A stretch of 64,000 nucleotides of DNA, from assembly GCA_038123275.1 (NCBI GenBank), contig JAYORG010000002.1, forward strand, positions 10,083-74,082, given 5' to 3'. Origin of the DNA: Rickettsiales bacterium. GTDB taxonomy: Bacteria > Pseudomonadota > Alphaproteobacteria > Rickettsiales > UBA1997. The notes under the pieces are model-generated. The model had not been told where the DNA came from and did no database searches. It worked only from the letters and a program-made list of their open reading frames with translations. Of this stretch, positions 24,288-41,261 are shown piece by piece (the stretch's first letter is position 1; every line of letters starts with the position of its first letter). The position numbers and the translations under genes were made by a program.

Positions 24288-24737
24288 CTATTTAATTTTA
24301 AAGTATTTATCTGCTGATATTTTTCCGCTACCATAGATAAAAATAGTAGATAGCAAGAAGAGCCAATAGAAATGTTCAATATTTTGTATCACTAGAAATT
24401 GGATTGTAAGTGTCATAACTATTAAAGGTATAACTGCAAATCTACTTAAAAGACCTAATGCTAAAAGTACAGGGCAAACTAACTCAAAGAATGTACCAAT
24501 ATAAGCTGCAAAAACAGGAGATATCAAAGGTAAGTCATATTCATACTCAAACAGATAAATAGCATTATCAATGTTGGCGAATTTATTTCTACCACTTTTA
24601 AAAAAGATATTAGCCATCCATAGCCTACAGGATAATAACAATATAGATGCAAAATAGTCTTCTATTACATTAAAAAACTTGTTATTAGATTTTGTGATTA
24701 ATCTTGTAATTTTCTTGGTACTAATCATTTTTAACAT
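24288..24737 (-). CDS. DoxX-family membrane protein (last gene of the MNIO/bufferin-like operon)
   Basis: 149 aa; 4 TM; LLLSCRLWMANIFFKSGRNKF matches the DoxX N-terminal pattern; overlaps the upstream DUF2063 gene. Confidence 0.7.
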   Translation of the reverse strand: MLKMISTKKITRLITKSNNKFFNVIEDYFASILLLSCRLWMANIFFKSGRNKFANIDNAIYLFEYEYDLPLISPVFAAYIGTFFELVCPVLLALGLLSRFAVIPLIVMTLTIQFLVIQNIEHFYWLFLLSTIFIYGSGKISADKYFKIK

Positions 24738-25476
24738 TGAAATTGGTTATTATTTTGCAAGAGACAAACTTATTTATTAAAGATCCTATATCAAAATCTT
24801 CTTTATTTAAGCTTAAAGTTTCATGAATTTGGTAAATATTCTTCTTCTCTTCAATCATTTTTAGAAAACCATACTCAGCCTTTGCTAAATTATGAATATT
24901 AACCTTAAAAGATGATCCTTCAATGATAATAAATTGGCCTTTTTTTTCTTCAAGATTAATTTTATCTTTAGACCATATTGAATAGATTGGATATTTTGAA
25001 GCAATTAAATAACATGAAGGGTGTAAATTAAAGTATAGAGACATAAAGTCATCTTCACTTAAAGATTGTAATTTTTTAATGTCAATTGGCTTTGCATCTT
25101 TACTAAAGTAAGATAAATTGTAAAACCATTCCAAGTTAGCAAGATCAGTTAAGTAAGGTAATTTATGTTCTTTTTCTAAGCTTTTAATAAATTTTGGAAA
25201 ATATTGTCCATAATCTTCTAAATTTCCGCTTTTAGAATGATATTTATGATGATACTGCTTTATTATCTTATAAAAATAATCATCTCCTACGATATTTTTG
25301 GTGGATTCATAAGTTAGTGATAAGGAATCATCAAAGCTGCTAAATATATTATTTCGATAAATATCCATCCTTTGTCTAATGTCTATTTTGCTAGAATTAA
25401 TCTTAGAAAATATTTTTAAGTTATTTTGATTATAAATATGATTAGCAAACTGCTCTTGTAGGTCTGATAGATTCAT
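24721..25476 (-). CDS. DUF2063-family protein (MNIO partner, BufC-like)
   Basis: 251 aa; LQEQFANHIY...MDIYRNNIFSSFDDSLSLTYESTKNIVGDDYF matches the DUF2063 N-terminal consensus (vYRNn...L...fP....lvG...F). Confidence 0.65.
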   Translation of the reverse strand: MNLSDLQEQFANHIYNQNNLKIFSKINSSKIDIRQRMDIYRNNIFSSFDDSLSLTYESTKNIVGDDYFYKIIKQYHHKYHSKSGNLEDYGQYFPKFIKSLEKEHKLPYLTDLANLEWFYNLSYFSKDAKPIDIKKLQSLSEDDFMSLYFNLHPSCYLIASKYPIYSIWSKDKINLEEKKGQFIIIEGSSFKVNIHNLAKAEYGFLKMIEEKKNIYQIHETLSLNKEDFDIGSLINKFVSCKIITNFNVKND

Positions 25477-26311
25477 TATTTATTATTAGTTGTTCTGCCT
25501 TTTTGGCTTCATTTAATAAATTTTCGATAGATGGTAGATCTTGATCCCACTCTATTAATGATGGTGAATTAAATTTTTTAATAGCAATTTTATAAAGATC
25601 CCAAACTTCATCGCAAACATAATTATCATGTGTATCAATTAAAATTATATTACCATCAATATTGGACTTGCTATGTCCAGCTAAATGTATTTCTTTAACT
25701 ATTTGCGGGTTAATATTATTAATATAAGAAATAGGGTCAAATTTATTATTATAAGAGCTGACATAAATATTGTTGATATCAAGTAATATTTTGCATCCAG
25801 TTTTATTTGCTACTTGGTTAATGAAATCATCTTCTGCAATTTCTGATTCTTTAAAACTTAGGTAGGTTGATGGATTTTCAACCAGAATTTCTTTTTTAAG
25901 AAAATCTTGCACTTGTGATATATTGCTACATAAAGCTTCTAGAGATTCTTTGGTATAAGGTAGTGGAAGTAGGTCGTTTAAAACCTGATTTTTAATATTA
26001 CTCCATGATATATGATCAGAAATTAAAAATGGATCACAAAATTCAACTAGTTTTTTAAGTTTTTGTAAGTGAGTTTGGTCAATTTTTTGAGCTGAACCAA
26101 GTGATAGGCCAACACCATGTAAGCTTAAGGGATAACTTTCTCTAATTTTTTTTAAAAAGCCAAGAGACGGACCGCCATCGGCAAAGAAATTTTCACTATG
26201 AACTTCAAGCCAAGGAATATTTGGCTTATTTTTTAATATATAATCGTGGTGAGGGTGTCTTAAACCAATCCCAACTGCAGTAGTTGAGATTGGTTTTTTA
26301 ATTTTAAACAC
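25442..26311 (-). CDS. DUF692 / MNIO-family (multinuclear non-heme iron oxidative) RiPP-modifying enzyme (BufB-like)
   Basis: 289 aa; VGIGLRHPHHDYIL, WLEVHSENFF, YPLSLHGVGLSLGS, ISDHISW, VENPSTYL, IHLAGHS, LIEWD. Confidence 0.8.
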   Translation of the reverse strand: MFKIKKPISTTAVGIGLRHPHHDYILKNKPNIPWLEVHSENFFADGGPSLGFLKKIRESYPLSLHGVGLSLGSAQKIDQTHLQKLKKLVEFCDPFLISDHISWSNIKNQVLNDLLPLPYTKESLEALCSNISQVQDFLKKEILVENPSTYLSFKESEIAEDDFINQVANKTGCKILLDINNIYVSSYNNKFDPISYINNINPQIVKEIHLAGHSKSNIDGNIILIDTHDNYVCDEVWDLYKIAIKKFNSPSLIEWDQDLPSIENLLNEAKKAEQLIINNESIRPTRAVC

Positions 26312-26333: not shown

Positions 26334-26516
26334 TTACTTTTTTTTGCTATGGCAGCCATTACTTCCACAGCTATGTTTGCCAGATTTCTTGCTTTTGCAA
26401 GAATTTTTTCCACCACATTTATGAGATCCATCTTTAGCGCCAAACATTGAACAAGCAGAAGTTAGAGTAATAAGAGCAACACCAGTTGCTACTGATTTTA
26501 AAAAATTAGTTTTCAT
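26334..26516 (-). CDS. small exported Cys/His/Lys-rich peptide (candidate second RiPP precursor)
   Basis: 60 aa: MKTNFLKSVATGVALITLTSACSMFGAKDGSHKCGGKNSCKSKKSGKHSCGSNGCHSKKK. Its signal peptide aligns with that of the adjacent DUF2282 peptide, and GKHSC is shared. It sits between the precursor and the MNIO gene. Confidence 0.5.
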   Translation of the reverse strand: MKTNFLKSVATGVALITLTSACSMFGAKDGSHKCGGKNSCKSKKSGKHSCGSNGCHSKKK

Positions 26517-26565: not shown

Positions 26566-26820
26566 TTAACCTAAAATGCCATTGACAATTTTTGTACAAG
26601 TGCCTTTAGGTAGTAAAACCCATTCATTTTTATCTCCATCTTTAGTTGCTCCACCAGCACAAGAATGTTTACCTTGTTTGTCGCTGCAATCATTTTGACC
26701 AGCTTTAACAACTCCATAACATTTTTCCATTTTTTTAGATTTAGCTTGTGCTTCCAATGTTATTAGAGAAATAGCACCAACACCAAGAATTACAGATGAT
26801 AAAAAAGTTTTTTTGTTCAT
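26566..26820 (-). CDS. DUF2282-family exported peptide (BufA1/bufferin-type precursor)
   Basis: 84 aa; signal peptide ...LEAQA/KS; core EKCYGVVKAGQNDCSDKQGKHSCAGGATKDGDKNEWVLLPKGTC with the four conserved Cys. Confidence 0.75.
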   Translation of the reverse strand: MNKKTFLSSVILGVGAISLITLEAQAKSKKMEKCYGVVKAGQNDCSDKQGKHSCAGGATKDGDKNEWVLLPKGTCTKIVNGILG

Positions 26821-26867: not shown

Positions 26868-26895
26868 AATCTAAAATCATAATTATTTTTGTCAA
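26868..26895 (-). promoter_or_regulatory. candidate sigma70-type promoter of the bufferin-like operon
   Basis: On the minus strand: TTGACA (26895-26890), 16-nt spacer, TAGATT (26873-26868); about 45 nt upstream of the precursor ATG. Confidence 0.3.
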
Positions 26896-34242: not shown

Positions 34243-35262
34243 TTAATAGCATTCATATTCAACAGGTTCCCATTGGCCATTTAGGCCACATTTTCTTCTA
34301 GGGTAAAGAAAATTATCTGGATTATCACTATAACATCCATACTCACTACAATCAATATTGCCTTGCGTGGTTTCGCCATAATATGCTGCTGGAAATTCAA
34401 TTTCTTCTCCAGAACAGCTATCATTATAAGATGATGTTTCTTCAGGGCAAACAGTAATATTAAAGCCACCAATTTCTTGAACTAATGTCTCTCTGGTATT
34501 GTAAGCTATTAAATCATCAAAGTCACTACCTCCAGAATTGACAACAAAGACATTATCAAATATATCGCCACCAGATACTCCAGTTGGTGCGTTATTTTCT
34601 TCATCTGTATCACTACTTGAGCCATTTTGAGTTGAGCCGCTATTAATATTAAAGGCTCTATAGCCATTTGATCCATGACTAATAAGTGCATAGGTAGCAA
34701 CAGTAGTAATGCTTGAACCAGGTTGACCAGATATTGTTTCTTGAATTGTAATAGGATCTACGCTAGATGTAGCATCCATATTTGTTCCTTCAAATCCTGA
34801 TGCACCACCGCTGGCAAAAACTTCTGTTAATTGTTTAGGAACTACATAAGAAAATTTATTATCAAATCCATCTCCTAAATATTCTAGGTTAAGACCTAAA
34901 GCTTTAACAGGAACTGCGCCATAAACTAGGCCCTCATTAGCATTACTATTTGTTGAGGTTAGTACACCAGTTGCAGTACAATCTCCAGCACTTCCAGCTT
35001 CTGCTCCATAGGTAGAATCAGTTGTGATATCATGTAAAGATGCTGGGCAGGGTAATCTTTTATAGGTGTAAACAAAAACATTTAAGGCTTTTTGAATGAC
35101 TGCCATTTTATCTTTAGTAGATTTAGCTTTGGCATTTTTAAGGGCGCTTGTAGAAGCTGTTACAGCTCCAGAAATTATAACTGAAATAATAGCTAAAACA
35201 ATGGATAATTCAATTAAGCTAAATGCTGATTTTCTGGTTTTTGTGATGGTATTGATAGTCAT
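34243..35262 (-). CDS. large type IV pilin-like protein, paralog 1 (prepilin-type N-terminus, Cys-rich C-terminal module)
   Basis: 339 aa; basic leader MTINTITKTRKSA then FSLIELSIVLAIISVIISG (Phe+1, Glu+5, hydrophobic helix); conserved RLPCPASLHDITTD; 8 Cys; C-terminal RKCGLNGQWEPVEYEC. Confidence 0.7.
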   Translation of the reverse strand: MTINTITKTRKSAFSLIELSIVLAIISVIISGAVTASTSALKNAKAKSTKDKMAVIQKALNVFVYTYKRLPCPASLHDITTDSTYGAEAGSAGDCTATGVLTSTNSNANEGLVYGAVPVKALGLNLEYLGDGFDNKFSYVVPKQLTEVFASGGASGFEGTNMDATSSVDPITIQETISGQPGSSITTVATYALISHGSNGYRAFNINSGSTQNGSSSDTDEENNAPTGVSGGDIFDNVFVVNSGGSDFDDLIAYNTRETLVQEIGGFNITVCPEETSSYNDSCSGEEIEFPAAYYGETTQGNIDCSEYGCYSDNPDNFLYPRRKCGLNGQWEPVEYECY

Positions 35263-35336
35263 TAGATTTAGTAGGTTTTTTTAATTCATCTTTGCTTTGA
35301 AGTTTTAAGCATAGTTCACATACAAAGCTTCGCATC

Positions 35337-35365
35337 ATTTATGCTGTTATTTATGCTTTTGTCAA
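35337..35365 (-). promoter_or_regulatory. candidate promoter for pilin-like paralog 1
   Basis: Minus strand: TTGACA (35365-35360), 17-nt spacer, ATAAAT (35342-35337), within the 131-bp spacer between paralogs 2 and 1. Confidence 0.25.
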
Positions 35366-35393
35366 GAATTATTAGATATTGTTTGTTGATTAT

Positions 35394-36401
35394 CTAGATG
35401 CACCCATCTATAGCAGATTCCCATTGACCATTTAGGCCACATTTTCTAGTAGCAGTGCCACTTGAACATCCAGCTATTGATGCACAAGTTTCATTGCTAT
35501 TTACATTTGTAGTTCCATCGTAGTATCTTGCCGGAAATGTTAATCCATTACCTGAAGTTAAGCATCCTGGGCTAAAGTCAGAAGTTTCTGTTGTGCAAAC
35601 GGTTGTGCTAAAACCTCCAATATCTTTGACTATGAGTTCTCTGGTGCTGTAAACTACAATATCATCAAAACCAGAATCATTAGAACTTGTAATAAAAGTT
35701 TTGTCAAATATGTCACCGCCAGATACTCCAGTTGGTGAATTATCCTCTTCATCTGTACTGGTAGAAGATCCATTTTGAATGGATCCACTATTAATATTAA
35801 AAGCTCTAAAACCATTTGGTCCATGACTTAAAACAACATAGGCACCAATAAGAGTTGTAATAGTTCCAGTAGATCTTATTTCTATGGGATCTAAATTAAC
35901 AGTATCAGACATGTCTGCCCCCTCAAAGCCTACAGCACCACCATTAACAAAAGTTTCGGTTAGTTGTTGAGGTACTATATAGGAAAATTTATTATCAAAT
36001 GCATCTCCCATGAGCTCAATATCTAGACCCAGATCTTTAACAGGAACTGCTCCATAAATTAGGCCATCATTAGCGGCTGTATTTGTTGAAGTTAAAGCTC
36101 CAGTAGCAGTACAAGTCCCAGATGTTCCTGCTTCTGTTCCATATGCAGTATCGGTTGTTATATCATGCAAAGATGCTGGGCAGGGTAGCCTTTTATTGTT
36201 ATACACAAAAATATGTAAAGCATGTTGGATGGTTTTTATTCTATCTTTTGTTATTTTAATTTTAGCATTTTTGATGTTATTTGTAGACACACTAATATAT
36301 CCAGAAATAATAATGGCAATAATGGCCATTATAACTGATAATTCAATAAAGCTAAATGCTGATTTTTTCCTTTTTTGAATTTTATTGCTGTTATTTAGCA
36401 T
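35394..36401 (-). CDS. large type IV pilin-like protein, paralog 2
   Basis: 335 aa; leader ...KRKKSA then FSFIELSVIMAIIAIIISG; same RLPCPASLHDITTD core; C-terminal RKCGLNGQWESAIDGC. Confidence 0.7.
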   Translation of the reverse strand: MLNNSNKIQKRKKSAFSFIELSVIMAIIAIIISGYISVSTNNIKNAKIKITKDRIKTIQHALHIFVYNNKRLPCPASLHDITTDTAYGTEAGTSGTCTATGALTSTNTAANDGLIYGAVPVKDLGLDIELMGDAFDNKFSYIVPQQLTETFVNGGAVGFEGADMSDTVNLDPIEIRSTGTITTLIGAYVVLSHGPNGFRAFNINSGSIQNGSSTSTDEEDNSPTGVSGGDIFDKTFITSSNDSGFDDIVVYSTRELIVKDIGGFSTTVCTTETSDFSPGCLTSGNGLTFPARYYDGTTNVNSNETCASIAGCSSGTATRKCGLNGQWESAIDGCI

Positions 36402-36416
36402 TTTATTAGATTTTAT

Positions 36417-37442
36417 TTAAGAACATCCATCTATTGCTGGTTCCCATTGGCCATTTAAGCCACATTTTCTAGTTGTAGTACCGCTTGAACACCCTGTAAT
36501 TGAGGCGCAAGTTTCGTTGCTACCTACATTTGTGGTTCCATCGTAATAGCTTACAGGAAATGTTAAACCACTACCTGAAGTAAGACATCCTGGACTAAAG
36601 TCAGAAGTTTCAGTGGTGCAAGCAGTAATGTTAAAGCCGCCAATTTCTCTAACAAGAGTTTCTCTAATATTGTAAACAACAATATCATCAAAATCAGCAC
36701 TTCCAGAGCTTTTGATAAATATATTGTCAAATATATCGCCACCAGATACTCCAGTTGGTGCATTATCTTCTTCATCTGTATCGCTACTTGAGCTATTTTG
36801 AGTTGAGCCGCTATTAATATTAAATGCTCTTAGGCCATCTGGTCCGTGACTTAGAACAACATAGACTGCATTTGTAGTGATGTTTGAGCCAGAAGATACA
36901 GTTTCTCTAATTGTAATAGGGTCAACATTAGCTGTATCAGTCATGTCTGTTCCTTCAAAGCCATCAGCTGAGCCAGAAACAAAAGCCTCTGTAACTTGTT
37001 GTGGTACTATGTAAGAGAACTTATTATCAAAGGCATCTCCTAGCATTTCAATATCTAAACCCAAAGCTTTTACAGGAACTGCGCCATAAACTAAGCCATC
37101 ATTAGCAGCTGTATTTGTTGAAGTTAAAATACCAGTAGCAGTGCAAGTCCCAGCCGTTCCAGCTTCTGTTCCATATGCTGTGTCGGTTGTTATATCATGC
37201 AATGATGCTGGGCAGGGCAATCTTTTATTAGTATATACAAAGACCCCTAAGGCTTTTTTGATAATTTCTATTCTTTCTTTTGTTGTTTTAATTTTGGCAT
37301 TTTTTATGGCACTTGTAGAAACTGTAATAGAGCTAGAAATTATAATAGCAATAATTGCTAAAACAATTGATAACTCAATTAAGCTAAATGCTGATTTGTT
37401 TCCCTTTTTTTTTGAGGTTTTATTAGACATTATTATTAGCAA
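36417..37442 (-). CDS. large type IV pilin-like protein, paralog 3
   Basis: 341 aa; leader ...KKGNKSA then FSLIELSIVLAIIAIIISS; mostly identical to paralog 2 by eye; only 15 nt upstream of paralog 2. Confidence 0.7.
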   Translation of the reverse strand: MLIIMSNKTSKKKGNKSAFSLIELSIVLAIIAIIISSSITVSTSAIKNAKIKTTKERIEIIKKALGVFVYTNKRLPCPASLHDITTDTAYGTEAGTAGTCTATGILTSTNTAANDGLVYGAVPVKALGLDIEMLGDAFDNKFSYIVPQQVTEAFVSGSADGFEGTDMTDTANVDPITIRETVSSGSNITTNAVYVVLSHGPDGLRAFNINSGSTQNSSSSDTDEEDNAPTGVSGGDIFDNIFIKSSGSADFDDIVVYNIRETLVREIGGFNITACTTETSDFSPGCLTSGSGLTFPVSYYDGTTNVGSNETCASITGCSSGTTTRKCGLNGQWEPAIDGCS

Positions 37443-37542: not shown

Positions 37543-38175
37543 GTGTCACATAATAACATTATTGATATAAACTCTTATAAAAATAAAGGAAATAAAAAGA
37601 TGATAATTGTAATATCTTTAGCAGCTGCAATTTTTGCAATTTTTGCCTTCAATACAATATCTAATTATAATAAATATTTGGCTTTTGAAATAGAGGAATC
37701 TAATAATATTTCTTATGATATTGATGATGTAAAAGATGTTACCCCTTTGGAAATAATTAATAATATTGAAAAAGCTGAAAGAGAGGATAATCCAATTTTA
37801 ATTTATTTTTATACAAGTTGGTGCAGAGTTTGTAAGAAACAATTACCTATTATAAATGAAATTGCACGTAAATTTCAAAATACTGATTTAGAGGTTATTT
37901 TTGTGGCAATTGATAAGAATATTACGCAACAAAAAACAATTGATGGTTTACAAAGTATTAAGGATATTTATTTTCAACCTAAATATTTAAGTGATAGAAA
38001 TGGTTTTAAGGATCTTTTAAAGACTAAATCAATAAAATTTAGGAATAGAATACCATTTTCAGTAATAATTGGTAGAAATTCGCAAATTATTACCCAATTT
38101 AGTGGTTATAAAAATTTTAAATATTTTGATAATAGAATTATGAAAGCATTATTTAGGGAAGATGAGGATATATAA
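37543..38175 (+). CDS. membrane-anchored thioredoxin-fold protein (TlpA/ResA-like)
   Basis: 210 aa from GTG 37543 (ATG at 37600 preceded by aaagga may be the true start); TM MIIVISLAAAIFAIFAF; CxxC in FYTSWCRVCKKQLP; divergent from the pilin-like triplet. Confidence 0.6.
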   Translation: MSHNNIIDINSYKNKGNKKMIIVISLAAAIFAIFAFNTISNYNKYLAFEIEESNNISYDIDDVKDVTPLEIINNIEKAEREDNPILIYFYTSWCRVCKKQLPIINEIARKFQNTDLEVIFVAIDKNITQQKTIDGLQSIKDIYFQPKYLSDRNGFKDLLKTKSIKFRNRIPFSVIIGRNSQIITQFSGYKNFKYFDNRIMKALFREDEDI

Positions 38176-39556
38176 TAGTTTAAGTAAAGAAAAAGAAGAT
38201 TTTATTCCTTTAAATAAAGATAATGTTACTATCTATGTTTGTGGACCTACTGTTTATAGCTATCCACATCTTGGAAATGCTAGAAGTGTAGTAGTGTATG
38301 ATTTATTATTTCGTTTATTTAAGAGCATTTTTCCTAAGGTTACCTATGTTAGAAATATCACAGATGTTGATGATAAAATTAACATTGCCGCTAAAGAGAA
38401 GAAAATTTCCATTCAAAATTTAACTAAAGAATTTATCTCTATTTTTCATGAAGATATGGATAAGCTTCATGTTTTAAAACCAACTTTTGAACCAAGAGCT
38501 ACTGATAATATTAAGGAGATGATAGAGATGATCAAAACTTTAATTAAAAATGGTAATGCTTATGAGAATGAGGGTCATATTTTATTTGATGTTAAGAGTT
38601 TTAAGGATTATGGTAGGCTTTCTAATAGATCTTTAGATGATATGATTGCTGGGTCTCGTATTGAGCAGCAATCATATAAAAAGAATCCATTTGATTTTGT
38701 TTTATGGAAACCATCTTCTAATGATGATGATATTTCAGCAGTTTTTGATAGCCCTTGGGGCAAGGGTAGGCCAGGGTGGCATATTGAATGTTCGGCTATG
38801 AGTGATAAGTTTTTAGGTAAGGATTTTGATATTCATGGTGGTGGGGCAGATCTAAAATTTCCACATCACGACAATGAAATTGCTCAAAGTGTCTGTTCTA
38901 ATAAAGGGTCAAAACATGCACGTTATTGGGTGCATAATGGTTTTTTAACTGTTAATGGTGAAAAGATGAGCAAGTCTCTAGGTAATTTTATTACAGTGAG
39001 AGATCTTTTAAAAAAAGATATTGATGGGGTAGTTATTAGATATCTTTTGCTTTCTACCCATTATCGCAAGCCCCTTGATTTTAGTGACAATGCTTTGGAA
39101 GTTGCCCAAAAGGCTATTGATAAATTTTATGATATTATCGATGAGTTTAGAGATGAATTATTAAATGTAAAAGATAGTCAAAATAATTATTTAACACAGA
39201 TAAAAGAAGCTTTAAGTGATGATTTAAATTCTCCTATTGGCGTTTCTATTTTGCATAAAATAGTTAAAGATTTTAAAAAAGAGCAAGATCAAAATAATAA
39301 GCTAAAATTAGCTTGTAATTTACTTAATTGTTTAGATTTTATTGGTATTTATGATAAAAATTATCAAAAAGATTTGCAAAAAGATAATAATATTGAAGAA
39401 TCTTATATTTTAGAGCAGATTGAACTTAGAAAGCAGGCTAAAAAAGACAAAAATTGGCAATTATGTGATAAAATTAGGGATGATTTAATAGCTAAATTTA
39501 ATGTTATTTTAGAAGATAGCCCTGATGGTGAAGTGAAATGGAAAATTAAAAATTAA
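38162..39556 (+). CDS. cysS: cysteine--tRNA ligase
   Basis: 464 aa; YVCGPTVYSYPHLGNARS (HIGH), GWHIECS, KMSKSLGN; 14-nt overlap with the upstream thioredoxin-like gene. Confidence 0.95.
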   Translation: MRIYNSLSKEKEDFIPLNKDNVTIYVCGPTVYSYPHLGNARSVVVYDLLFRLFKSIFPKVTYVRNITDVDDKINIAAKEKKISIQNLTKEFISIFHEDMDKLHVLKPTFEPRATDNIKEMIEMIKTLIKNGNAYENEGHILFDVKSFKDYGRLSNRSLDDMIAGSRIEQQSYKKNPFDFVLWKPSSNDDDISAVFDSPWGKGRPGWHIECSAMSDKFLGKDFDIHGGGADLKFPHHDNEIAQSVCSNKGSKHARYWVHNGFLTVNGEKMSKSLGNFITVRDLLKKDIDGVVIRYLLLSTHYRKPLDFSDNALEVAQKAIDKFYDIIDEFRDELLNVKDSQNNYLTQIKEALSDDLNSPIGVSILHKIVKDFKKEQDQNNKLKLACNLLNCLDFIGIYDKNYQKDLQKDNNIEESYILEQIELRKQAKKDKNWQLCDKIRDDLIAKFNVILEDSPDGEVKWKIKN

Positions 39557-39559
39557 TAA

Positions 39560-40384
39560 ATGACCATGACTCAAAAAAAGAAAACTGCTTTTACATTAAT
39601 TGAGCTTGCCATTGTGATTGTAATAATTGCCATTGTAATTTCTATGGTTGTTGGTAGATCTTATCTGATTGGGGTAGCTAATTTGGTTAACTTGAGATCT
39701 ATTTCAGCTTCTTCACCTATTTATGAAATATCTGATAATACTTTGTGGCTTGATGTTTCTAATAAAAATGCTTTTACGCCTTATCCAAGTGATAGGACTA
39801 TTGTAGGATCTTGGACTGATTCTAGTCCTTATTTAGAAACTAATATTGCATTTACAACAGCTTTAGGTGATGGCCCTGAATTTATATTTGATAGTGTTGA
39901 TGGTTTACCAGCTTTATATTTTGATGGTGGCGATAGAATTGATAGTGCCTCTGTTGAAGCTTTTAATTTATCTGGGCCAGATAGGTCAACAATATTTGTT
40001 GTAGTAAAGAAATATACGCAATCAGTTAATGCTGATACATTTAGAAGGACTAATTTTAAGTTTGAGCTTGATGCATCTAGTCTTAAGATTGAAAATAATG
40101 GTATTGCCGTAGGTAATTATCCTGCTAATTTTCTGGATAAGTGGAACATTATTGTTGGTAGAAATAGTGATGGCGTTGGGGATATAAGGGTTAATGGTAT
40201 TAATATTACTATGACAGATACTGATATGACTGGTGTAATGACAGGTAGTTCTGTTATGGATGTAGGAAAAGATTTAACTGGTAATATTAGAGAAATTATT
40301 ATTTTTAAAAGAGCATTAGATAATGATGAAATTGTTGATATAGAGAGTTACTTATCCAATAAATGGCAAATTGATATTGATTAG
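39560..40384 (+). CDS. pilin-like protein with LamG/concanavalin-like domain, paralog A
   Basis: 274 aa; MTMTQKKKTA then FTLIELAIVIVIIAIVISM; LWLDVSNKNAF, LPALYFDGGD, C-terminal GNIREIIIFKRALDNDEIVDIESYLSNKWQI (LamG-type ending); starts 3 nt after the cysS stop. Confidence 0.6.
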   Translation: MTMTQKKKTAFTLIELAIVIVIIAIVISMVVGRSYLIGVANLVNLRSISASSPIYEISDNTLWLDVSNKNAFTPYPSDRTIVGSWTDSSPYLETNIAFTTALGDGPEFIFDSVDGLPALYFDGGDRIDSASVEAFNLSGPDRSTIFVVVKKYTQSVNADTFRRTNFKFELDASSLKIENNGIAVGNYPANFLDKWNIIVGRNSDGVGDIRVNGINITMTDTDMTGVMTGSSVMDVGKDLTGNIREIIIFKRALDNDEIVDIESYLSNKWQIDID

Positions 40385-40388
40385 AAAT

Positions 40389-41261
40389 ATGGTAAAAAAT
40401 AACAAAAAAACAGCATTTTCAGCAATTGAAATAGCAATAGTATTAGTGTTTATAGGGCTTTTGCTTGCCGGGATATTTTTTGTTAAGGGTAATTTATTTT
40501 CTAAAGCAAAAACTAATAAGATAATTTCTGCTACTAAATATTCTGTTTTAAAGGATATGGAAGGTTTAGCTGTTTGGTTTGATGTTGCAACTAAGGAATC
40601 TTTTAAAAATAGTGAGATGGTTGAGGGTGGTGGTATTAGTGAGTGGAAAAATATTAGTCCTAATAATTATGGTGATTTTAATGTTGTGCAATCTACTTCT
40701 GATAATCAACCTAAATATCTAATGGATTCAAAAGATAATTTACCGCTAATTAGTTTTAATGGAAGTGCAGATGGATTATATACAACGGGTAATGTATATG
40801 GATATCAGTTAGCTCAAAAAAATCAGGTAACCATATTTTCTGTACAGAAATATTATGATAATAATAATGCAACTATCGGTTGGGGGGTTAACACTAATAG
40901 ATTGTTATTTCATGCAAAATATGGTTTGAATGATATAATATATTTTGATTTTGGTGATATTTCTTCTGGAGGAAGAATAAATAATTTTGCGCCAAGTAAT
41001 TTTAATGAAGACTGGAAAATATTAACATTTGTTAGAAGGGTTGATAATAATGGTCAAATTAGAATTAATGGTAGTGATTTTCTTGTGAGTAGTATGACAG
41101 ATGATTTTGATGTTACTGATGCTAGTGTTTTTATTATAGGGAATGGTGATTCTAAAACAGATTTAAGAGAAGTTATTATTTTTAAGCGTGAATTGTCAGC
41201 AAGTGAAATTGATGAAATTGAAAAATATCTATCTGACAAGTGGAATATTGATTTAGACTAG
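40389..41261 (+). CDS. pilin-like protein with LamG/concanavalin-like domain, paralog B
   Basis: Preferred ATG 40389 (MVKNNKKTA/FSAIEIAIVLVFIGLLLAG); the track ORF begins at an upstream TTG (40371). VWFDVATKESF, LPLISFNGS, TDLREVIIFKRELSASEIDEIEKYLSDKWNI. Confidence 0.6.
   Translation: MVKNNKKTAFSAIEIAIVLVFIGLLLAGIFFVKGNLFSKAKTNKIISATKYSVLKDMEGLAVWFDVATKESFKNSEMVEGGGISEWKNISPNNYGDFNVVQSTSDNQPKYLMDSKDNLPLISFNGSADGLYTTGNVYGYQLAQKNQVTIFSVQKYYDNNNATIGWGVNTNRLLFHAKYGLNDIIYFDFGDISSGGRINNFAPSNFNEDWKILTFVRRVDNNGQIRINGSDFLVSSMTDDFDVTDASVFIIGNGDSKTDLREVIIFKRELSASEIDEIEKYLSDKWNIDLD

Follow-up and report, generated by a model that had tools for sequence, protein, structure and literature searches.

The stretch of DNA analysed here (the window; 64,000 nucleotides (nt) of contig JAYORG010000002.1, assembly GCA_038123275.1, from a Rickettsiales bacterium) carries on its minus strand a bufferin operon with the gene order DUF2282/bufA1 - small peptide - bufB - bufC - doxX. 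The subject of this analysis is the second gene of that operon, a 60-codon open reading frame (ORF) flanked by gaps of 49 nt and 22 nt. It starts with ATG and its translation product is MKTNFLKSVATGVALITLTSACSMFGAKDGSHKCGGKNSCKSKKSGKHSCGSNGCHSKKK, a peptide with five cysteines: C22 in a lipobox, and C34, C40, C50 and C55 in the core. Three histidines (H32, H48 and H56) are adjacent to or one residue away from C34, C50 and C55 respectively. Coordinates, strand and translation all agree with an initial annotation made from the sequence alone, which had also described three core cysteines beside or one residue from a histidine (H32/C34, H48/C50 and H56/C55), and had pointed to a GKHSC core motif that is indeed present in both the small peptide and the neighbouring DUF2282 peptide. 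The parts of the gene, as read from the translation, are the following.

26334..26516, minus strand: candidate mini-bufferin precursor gene, 60 residues, lipoprotein-type, Lys/Cys/His-rich (the range includes the stop codon, 26334-26336)
26454..26516, minus strand: predicted signal peptide, residues 1-21, with the N-terminal K-x-F-[LIV]-K-S motif (F5 and S8 invariant in 34 homologues)
26451..26465, minus strand: lipobox L-T-S-A-C, residues 18-22; Cys22 is the predicted site of lipidation and of cleavage by signal peptidase (SPase) II
26397..26423, minus strand: H-K-C-G-G-K-N-S-C (Cys34, Cys40), the family signature motif, invariant in the five closest homologues
26349..26381, minus strand: G-K-H-S-C-G-S-N-G-C-H, the second cysteine pair (Cys50, Cys55; C-x4-C) with flanking histidines

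Conservation of the small peptide gene and its lipobox

The 60-codon ORF is a genuine conserved gene, one member of a small family rather than an isolated truncated copy. Four contigs, which come from one NCBI assembly and three Logan sequencing runs, encode the identical 60-residue protein, and on those that were readable the neighbouring genes are the same as in the window. A single-sequence search of 5.8 billion proteins gave four relatives, and a profile built from these and the window peptide (five sequences) recovered 36 homologues at E<1e-3 from a collection of the same size. An HMMER search of 1.84 billion representative proteins with a 34-sequence profile gave 74 matching clusters at E<=1e-3, and 36 of these also reached E<=1e-10. 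The named records of the family are mostly metagenome-assembled genomes (MAGs) of Rickettsiales, largely derived from lakes, a few of the MAG labels being plainly unreliable. The window itself has 29.9% G+C and encodes an ankyrin-repeat protein, and its bufferin locus is syntenic with those of the Rickettsiales MAGs of the family. Conservation in related genomes had been proposed in the initial annotation as a check to be made, and it is borne out by the 74 clusters as well as by the DNA: all 16 orthologous ORFs that were read from DNA are intact and ATG-started, and the gene is under purifying selection, the proportion of nonsynonymous differences (pN) being lower than that of synonymous ones (pS) in 118 of 120 pairs. 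Between the window and its closest DNA relative (locus L020), the corresponding rate ratio dN/dS is 0.27. A reading of 26334..26516 as a spurious ORF is ruled out by the family, the intact orthologues and the purifying selection.

The alignment of the 34 homologues begins with M-(K/N/D)-K-x-F-(L/I/V)-K-S, in which K7 is conserved in at least 90% of the sequences, as is the lipobox cysteine further on. After the lipobox follows (D/E)-(S/A)-H-K-C-(G/A)-(G/A)-K-N-(S/G)-C, then a tail of variable length that contains further pairs of the H-K-C / N-x-C type. Three proteins with weak matches to the family profile (P0119, P0123 and P0128) combine a signal peptide of the SPase I type with repeats of an N-P-C-A-A-K-N-P-C-A unit, and they appear to be a different family of Cys repeats.

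The signal peptide was judged by its n/h/c-region pattern, by the lipobox rule and by a helix over residues 3-24 in the AlphaFold2 model. L-T-S-A-C22 fits the PROSITE-type lipoprotein rule, [LIVMFWSTAG](2)-[LIVMFYSTAGCQ]-[AGS]-C preceded by an uncharged stretch and a basic N-terminus. The same rule is satisfied by 84 of 97 profile hits, the 13 failures being truncated or extended gene calls or members of other families. Directly after the lipobox cysteine (position +2) there is Ser in 59 of the 84 members and Asp in none. The resemblance of TSAC to a lipobox, remarked on in the initial annotation, holds for the family in view of the conserved cysteine and these 84 hits, and the small peptide is most likely a lipoprotein, with Cys22 as the predicted lipidated residue. 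At least five other ORFs of the window begin with signal peptides that end in similar lipoboxes, which is consistent with a working lipoprotein pathway. Far from any MNIO gene, a 54-residue ORF (62299-62463, minus strand) has the lipobox FIISSC, two further cysteines and a sub-threshold match to DUF2706 (19 versus 25 bits).

The signal peptides of the small peptides and of the co-resident DUF2282 precursors have in common K-x-F-[LIV]-x-S-[VLM]-x-x-G-[VI], a motif that is found neither in the Buf2-type set of other taxa nor in the remaining signal peptides noted in the window. The alignment of the two neighbouring N-termini that had been proposed for the window is correct over F-L-x-S-V-x-x-G-V-x-x-I-x-L (8 of 14 positions), except that the final T of the proposed match is off register by one residue. 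Leprevost et al. (2024) found the signal peptide of bufferins to be dispensable for modification under overexpression and did not settle whether it overlaps with a leader (PMC11626156). A role of the shared N-terminal motif as a leader for enzyme recognition is speculation.

Downstream of the lipobox, the cores of the family are 31-77 residues long (38 in the window peptide), with 26% Lys and 2-7 cysteines (median 4). The consensus around the cysteines is [K/S/A]-[N/H]-[K/S/G]-C-[S/A/K/G]-[S/A/G]-K, and the cysteines are arranged in pairs some 9-10 residues apart, C-x5-C occurring in 54 of the 84 members and C-x4-C in 33; the first pair is C-x5-C in 38 of the 84. When AlphaFold2 was given the family alignment, it placed a helix only at the N-terminal residues mentioned above, and the core, without secondary structure and with predicted local distance difference test (pLDDT) values of 51-55, is predicted to be unstructured.

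The bufBC operon and its survey in 24 loci

The remaining genes of the operon in the window, all transcribed in the same direction as the small peptide gene, and a possible promoter are given below.

26566..26820, minus strand: BufA1, DUF2282 bufferin precursor of 84 residues with an SPase I-type signal peptide (PF10048, E 3.8e-25)
25442..26311, minus strand: BufB, MNIO (DUF692) bufferin maturase (NCBIfam equivalog NF050167, 372 bits, cutoff 310; PF05114, E 1.9e-100)
24721..25476, minus strand: BufC, DUF2063 (PME type 1) partner, overlapping bufB by 35 nt (PF09836, E 2.7e-19; HvfC-like, 61 bits)
24288..24737, minus strand: BufD, DoxX-family membrane protein, overlapping bufC by 17 nt (PF07681, E 5.6e-16)
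26868..26895, minus strand: weak sigma-70-like promoter candidate (TTGACA, 16 nt, TAGATT), the best match upstream of the operon

The locus shows the hallmarks of a bufferin/captophorin cluster: a BufB-type MNIO, a DUF2063 gene directly after it, and the peptide gene 22 nt upstream of bufB. The scan of the operon region for promoters and terminators gave no signal above shuffled sequence and no support for an internal promoter or terminator; since promoter-like sites are no commoner than in shuffled sequence, the site at 26868..26895 stays a mere candidate.

By three routes, 24 distinct loci were collected: peptide look-ups, two collection scans, and a set of five BufB homologues for which similarity to BufB was the sole criterion. 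Three precursor-type hidden Markov models (HMMs) were run on all six-frame ORFs of the loci gathered first, and then on the candidate upstream ORFs of L036-L040. The arrangements found are as follows.

8 loci (window, L020, L028, L030, L034, L036, L037, L038): DUF2282 > peptide > bufB, as in the window
12 loci (L004, L010, L013, L015, L019, L023, L024, L025, L027, L032, L039, L040): peptide > bufB, no DUF2282 or Buf2 ORF in the flank read (2 kb minimum, up to 6 kb)
1 locus (L016): peptide > bufB > bufC > doxX, with a convergent DUF2282 gene after doxX
1 locus (L026): peptide > bufB, upstream sequence too short to judge
2 loci (L017, L018): peptide followed directly by thiL, no MNIO or BufC gene within 6 kb

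The peptide gene is located immediately 5' of bufB and on the same strand in 22 of the 24 loci, and in the sample that was picked by BufB similarity a family peptide lies directly upstream in all five cases. A DUF2063 gene follows the MNIO gene in every sufficiently long locus except L017 and L018, and the next gene after the operon is thiL in the window as in many other loci. Since no DUF2282 or Buf2 ORF occurs in the flanks of the 12 loci, the small peptide is the only candidate substrate there. The MNIOs of peptide-only loci scored 340 and 338 bits against the BufB equivalog cutoff of 310. A rough neighbour-joining tree of BufB (no support values; a Buf2-associated MNIO as outgroup) separates a clade of tandem loci from a clade of peptide-only loci, L016 falling in the latter. 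The position of the peptide gene before bufB in 22 of 24 loci and its presence in both sister clades indicate that it is the constant feature, with DUF2282 as the variable partner, and the small peptide was probably already present in the common ancestor of this BufB clade. One tandem locus (L034 3995-7288, GCA_965661355.1) represents a more distant lineage, its BufB being 55% identical to that of the window. A gene for a TetR-family regulator lies ahead of its DUF2282 > peptide > bufB > bufC > doxX operon and is transcribed divergently, and the peptides there use a V-S-S-C-K variant of the lipobox.

These results bear on the view, held in the initial annotation, that the ORF is a second precursor which arose as a tandem duplicate of its neighbour. 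Taken at its strictest, this means a recent local, truncated copy of the adjacent DUF2282 gene, either decaying or serving as a new, genome-specific second substrate, and it would account for the related signal peptides, for GKHSC in both peptides and for the reciprocal HMM matches (23.7 bits for the DUF2282 model on the small ORF, 26.0 bits for the reverse). On the other side stand the 74 clusters, the occurrence in both BufB sister clades, the 12 loci where DUF2282 is lacking, the purifying selection and a core that is nearer to Buf2 than to DUF2282 (see below). Additionally, the N-terminal identity between small peptide and DUF2282 peptide is 6.7/17 within a locus and 6.6/17 between loci, nearly equal values that point to neither a recent duplication nor gene conversion. 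A recent local duplication is accordingly very improbable, and a peptide that is constant 5' of bufB and the sole candidate substrate in 12 loci can hardly be called the second one. The part of that view that stands is the kinship of the signal peptide with those of the clade's DUF2282 precursors, and so does the suggestion that one enzyme pair faces two precursors: in 8 loci a single BufB/BufC pair is encoded behind two different precursor genes.

Comparison with known precursor families

Bufferins Buf1 and Buf2 and their 5-thiooxazoles have been published (PMC11626156), and in Buf2 the cysteines numbered II to V are converted by the MNIO, with Cys I and Cys VI forming a disulfide (PMC11626156). 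When the small-peptide family was compared by hhalign with BufA2-type bufferins, a probability of 97% was obtained, and with the clade's DUF2282 peptides one of 96% over residues 1-53, the latter resting largely on the signal peptide. The cores alone gave a score of 40.7 and a probability of 95% against the Buf2 type (column-shuffled, 9.4 +/- 3.0), compared to 18.9 and 10% against DUF2282 (column-shuffled, 7.9 +/- 1.9); in neither case did any of 100 shuffles reach the observed score. The core of the small peptide is closer to BufA2/Buf2 than to DUF2282, its similarity to the latter being weak. In the Buf2 alignment, Cys I is matched by H-K-C, Cys II by K-N-S-C, Cys IV by H-x-C and Cys V by (K)-N-G-C.

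The small peptide shares with BufA2 (Buf2 of Caulobacter vibrioides; NF050166) a Sec-type signal peptide, a gene position directly 5' of the BufB MNIO and BufC, and the local cysteine motifs K-C-x-G-x-N-S-C ... H-x-C-x-G-K-N-S-C-K (hhalign 95-97%). It differs from BufA2 in that Cys III, Cys VI and the C-terminal G-W...C...G-G element are missing, and the loss of Cys VI leaves no partner for a Cys I-Cys VI disulfide. Unlike the folded Buf2, moreover, it is predicted to be unstructured and has a Lys-rich tail of variable length and 2-7 core cysteines. A full-length BufA2 of lipoprotein type was seen in a sponge metagenome (P0040, L029 1431-1748; 69 bits, cutoff 60) before an MNIO and a BufC gene. 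Its lipobox and the stretch that follows (LTLATSCHMM...GKGSHKKGHC) resemble the small-peptide family, and P0040 is possibly a full-length relative of the mini-bufferins.

With BufA1/DUF2282 (PF10048), the small peptide has in common the same BufB, BufC and DoxX genes, the signal-peptide motif and an H-S-C motif. On the other hand, it has a lipobox where DUF2282 has an A-x-A site for SPase I, and it lacks both the five residues (Y-G-V-x-K) after Cys I and the W...G-T-C C-terminal half; the initial annotation was right that the rest of the DUF2282 fold is missing, the folded C-terminal part of the bufferin having been lost. At E<=1 no Pfam model, PF10048 included, matches the window peptide, and PF10048 matches none of the 34 relatives.

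The initial annotation had also supposed that the core had diverged toward the short KCG-type peptides of other MNIOs, and a divergent member of the HvfA/oxazolin/fontiphorin group (EGKCG, Lys-Cys), lipidated like NedA, would be the corresponding explanation. Like HvfA/oxazolin, fontiphorin and gonophorin, the small peptide is an unstructured, Lys-rich, exported peptide with Lys-Cys-small motifs and MNIO and DUF2063 neighbours; its best-conserved motif, H-K-C-[G/A], is Lys-Cys-small as in EGKCG, and NedA demonstrates that an EGKCG-type product can be lipidated (PMC13097082, PMC13056109). However, it has no EGKCG repeats and no 5-mer or 17-mer repeats, and none of the 34 members matches the HvfA models NF050137 and NF050188 at E<=1, whereas a synthetic EGKCG control reached 103 bits (cutoff 19.5). 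The enzyme is also of BufB type: the window MNIO passes the BufB cutoff and fails that of HvfB (223 bits, cutoff 360), and an alignment to PDB 3BWW (an HvfB-type MNIO) showed R-H/S in the BufB clade where 3BWW has R-R, and E-W-D-Q where it has E-R-D-F. Of 13 BufBs of the clade (window and 12 related loci), 12 have Gln next after the putative catalytic Asp and one has Val, whereas Phe is found at this position in Lys-Cys and Asp in Cys-Lys enzymes, where it influences the accepted cysteine contexts (PMC13097082). With Gln instead of Phe, and with no HvfA match in the family, there is little to be said for the supposed drift toward KCG-type peptides, and membership of the HvfA group has a slight chance at best. 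What does stand from the initial annotation is that the core belongs to no described precursor class, as far as the curated BufA1, BufA2, HvfA and CefA models are concerned, all of which it fails.

A further possibility is that the family has already been catalogued, either as the 'CxxxxC' family (Antoine et al. 2025; PMC12452194) or as the lipoprotein 'Cluster X' with its CxxxxC motif (PNAS 2026; PMC13056109), the latter published together with experimentally proven MNIO lipoproteins that are RiPPs (peptides made by ribosomes and modified after translation). Both are small and MNIO-adjacent, have signal peptides (lipoprotein signals in Cluster X) and are defined by paired cysteines of the C-x4-C type, of which the window peptide has one (C50-x4-C55). 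C-x4-C is, however, found in a minority of the members (33 of 84), and C-x5-C is dominant and best conserved (54 of 84, and 38 of 84 for the first pair). In addition, Lactamase_B_2 occurs in no called gene of the loci analysed compared to 54% of the published CxxxxC clusters, and the motif strings of the family are absent from the supplementary data of the papers, themselves incomplete. On this indirect evidence, an identity with either of the two published groups is improbable.

Two other comparisons are of interest. DybA, a substrate of a ChrH-type MNIO, provides a parallel for modification by an MNIO in the cytoplasm followed by the Lgt/LspA lipoprotein pathway (PMC13056109); it differs from the small peptide in MNIO subfamily, in motif (CPACGMG in DybA), in chemistry (macrocycle and hydantoin in DybA) and in phylum. 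The 776 unclassified small ORFs with signal peptide and cysteines reported upstream of mega-cluster MNIOs (PMC12452194, Table S2) resemble the small peptides in being shorter than 200 residues, in containing Cys and a signal peptide and in being located immediately 5' of a bufferin mega-cluster-type MNIO. Those ORFs were counted without grouping or description, whereas the small peptides form a defined family with its own motifs, lipobox, distribution and relation to Buf2. No description of this family was found in the literature, and it is not listed in the supplementary data of PMC12452194, PMC13097082 and PMC12636315, which are themselves incomplete. Most likely it represents an unnamed variant inside the established bufferin paradigm, where MNIO and DUF2063 partners, Sec export, lipidation and tandem precursors all have published precedent.

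A candidate lipid-anchored bufferin and its alternatives

Taken together, the 60-residue product is probably, with a likelihood that we put at roughly 60%, a precursor of the bufferin/captophorin class that has a lipoprotein signal and Buf2-like cysteine motifs and has lost the folded C-terminal part. If so, the operon bufA1 - small peptide - bufB - bufC - doxX would be transcribed as one unit, as the short gaps around the peptide gene (49 nt and 22 nt) and the overlaps of the downstream genes suggest. In the cytoplasm, BufB-BufC would oxidise some or all of C34, C40, C50 and C55 to 5-thiooxazoles, by analogy to Buf1, Buf2 and fontiphorin, and the lipobox residue Cys22 would probably be spared. 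After Sec export, Lgt would add diacylglycerol to Cys22 and LspA would cut between A21 and C22, as expected from the conserved lipobox. The product would be an unstructured, strongly basic lipopeptide of 39 residues anchored to a membrane leaflet that faces the periplasm, and it may chelate copper through thiooxazole and His ligands beside the soluble, folded BufA1 matured by the same enzyme pair. Thiooxazole formation, lipidation and copper binding are thus proposed here by analogy to characterised systems. Precedents exist for several of these steps: 16% of Buf2 precursors have been predicted to be lipoproteins and precursor genes in tandem have been described (PMC12452194), and modification of lipoproteins by MNIOs was shown experimentally for DybA and NedA (PMC13056109).

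Several observations weigh against this assignment. The BufA2 model NF050166 (cutoff 60) does not match the window peptide and gives no more than 22 bits for 11 of the 34 relatives, with controls at 70.7 (P0038) and 69.1 bits (P0040). The sole NCBIfam match of the window peptide is to CefA (NF038108; 11.3 bits, cutoff 30, E 0.25), and three of the 34 relatives also match this model (best E 0.17); membership of the CefA 'Cys-every-fifth' group was rejected, the score being sub-threshold. Gln at the selectivity position means that the substrate preference of the BufB clade is not readable from published rules. The 60-codon ORF is not preceded by a Shine-Dalgarno sequence, an absence that is uninformative since no gene of the operon is preceded by one. 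Lipoproteins that are not RiPPs occur repeatedly in bufferin clusters (PMC13056109). Finally, in L017 (6001-6204) and L018 (6001-6258) the peptide gene is intact, shows pN < pS and lies directly before thiL; with no MNIO or BufC gene within 6 kb, these loci imply that the peptide can persist without an adjacent maturase, bufBC being either cleanly deleted or else encoded elsewhere.

The last two points are also what one would expect if the gene product were a small Cys/His/Lys-rich lipoprotein that BufBC leaves unmodified, a thiol/imidazole metal binder or a membrane partner of the soluble bufferin that is merely co-operonic. Its free Cys and His could themselves be ligands of Cu or Zn with no modification needed, and the residues linked to selectivity in the characterised Lys-Cys and Cys-Lys enzymes are missing from the BufB of the clade. 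Nevertheless, in the 12 loci of the peptide-only type this is the only small Cys ORF before a complete bufB-bufC pair, and the enzymes would otherwise be left without a substrate encoded nearby. In bufABC operons the position of bufA is strictly conserved (PMC12452194), and it is the one held by the peptide gene; the core cysteines of the peptide align with the modified cysteines of Buf2 well above the composition-preserving null. An unmodified lipoprotein is considered unlikely on this evidence, though it is the main alternative, and the precursor assignment is preferred.

The precursor assignment may be extended into a wider evolutionary scenario, which is held tentatively and as rather doubtful when all of its parts are taken together. 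In a small-genome, Rickettsiales-like clade, a folded periplasmic bufferin would have been reduced to a disordered, lipid-anchored thiooxazole peptide that is now the primary substrate of BufBC; one BufBC pair would recognise two substrates of unrelated structure, the folded soluble BufA1 and this lipopeptide, through the K-x-F-[LIV]-x-S motif of both, the signal peptide acting as RiPP leader, Sec signal and lipidation signal at once, and where BufBC was lost the peptide would have remained as an unmodified Cys/His metal binder.

If the small peptide is indeed matured by BufBC, it would be a minimal natural substrate of a bufferin MNIO, its 38-residue unstructured core being handy for studying the choice of cysteines by BufB, and it would provide a natural case of one BufB/BufC pair that serves both a folded soluble and a disordered lipidated precursor. 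The conserved motif in both signal peptides would make the question of leader recognition in bufferins testable. Rickettsiales are reported to be depleted in MNIO-PME1 clusters (PMC13097082), and copper-handling RiPP-lipoproteins would be added to Rickettsiales-like bacteria, where they may relate to copper stress inside protist hosts. More generally, the unclassified small Cys ORFs upstream of MNIOs would be resolvable into coherent families.

Elsewhere in the 64-kb window, an Rfam scan gave no matches at gathering thresholds, tRNA included. Five paralogous ORFs of 274-339 residues flank an ORF at 38162-39556, three in tandem on the minus strand (34243-37430) and two on the plus strand (39560-41261). 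Four of the five score 20-27 bits against PF07963 (prepilin-type N-terminal methylation motif), three of these above the gathering score of 21.2, and the fifth has the same N-terminal pattern by eye and a weak Laminin_G_3 match; the set looks like an expanded pilin or pseudopilin-like family.

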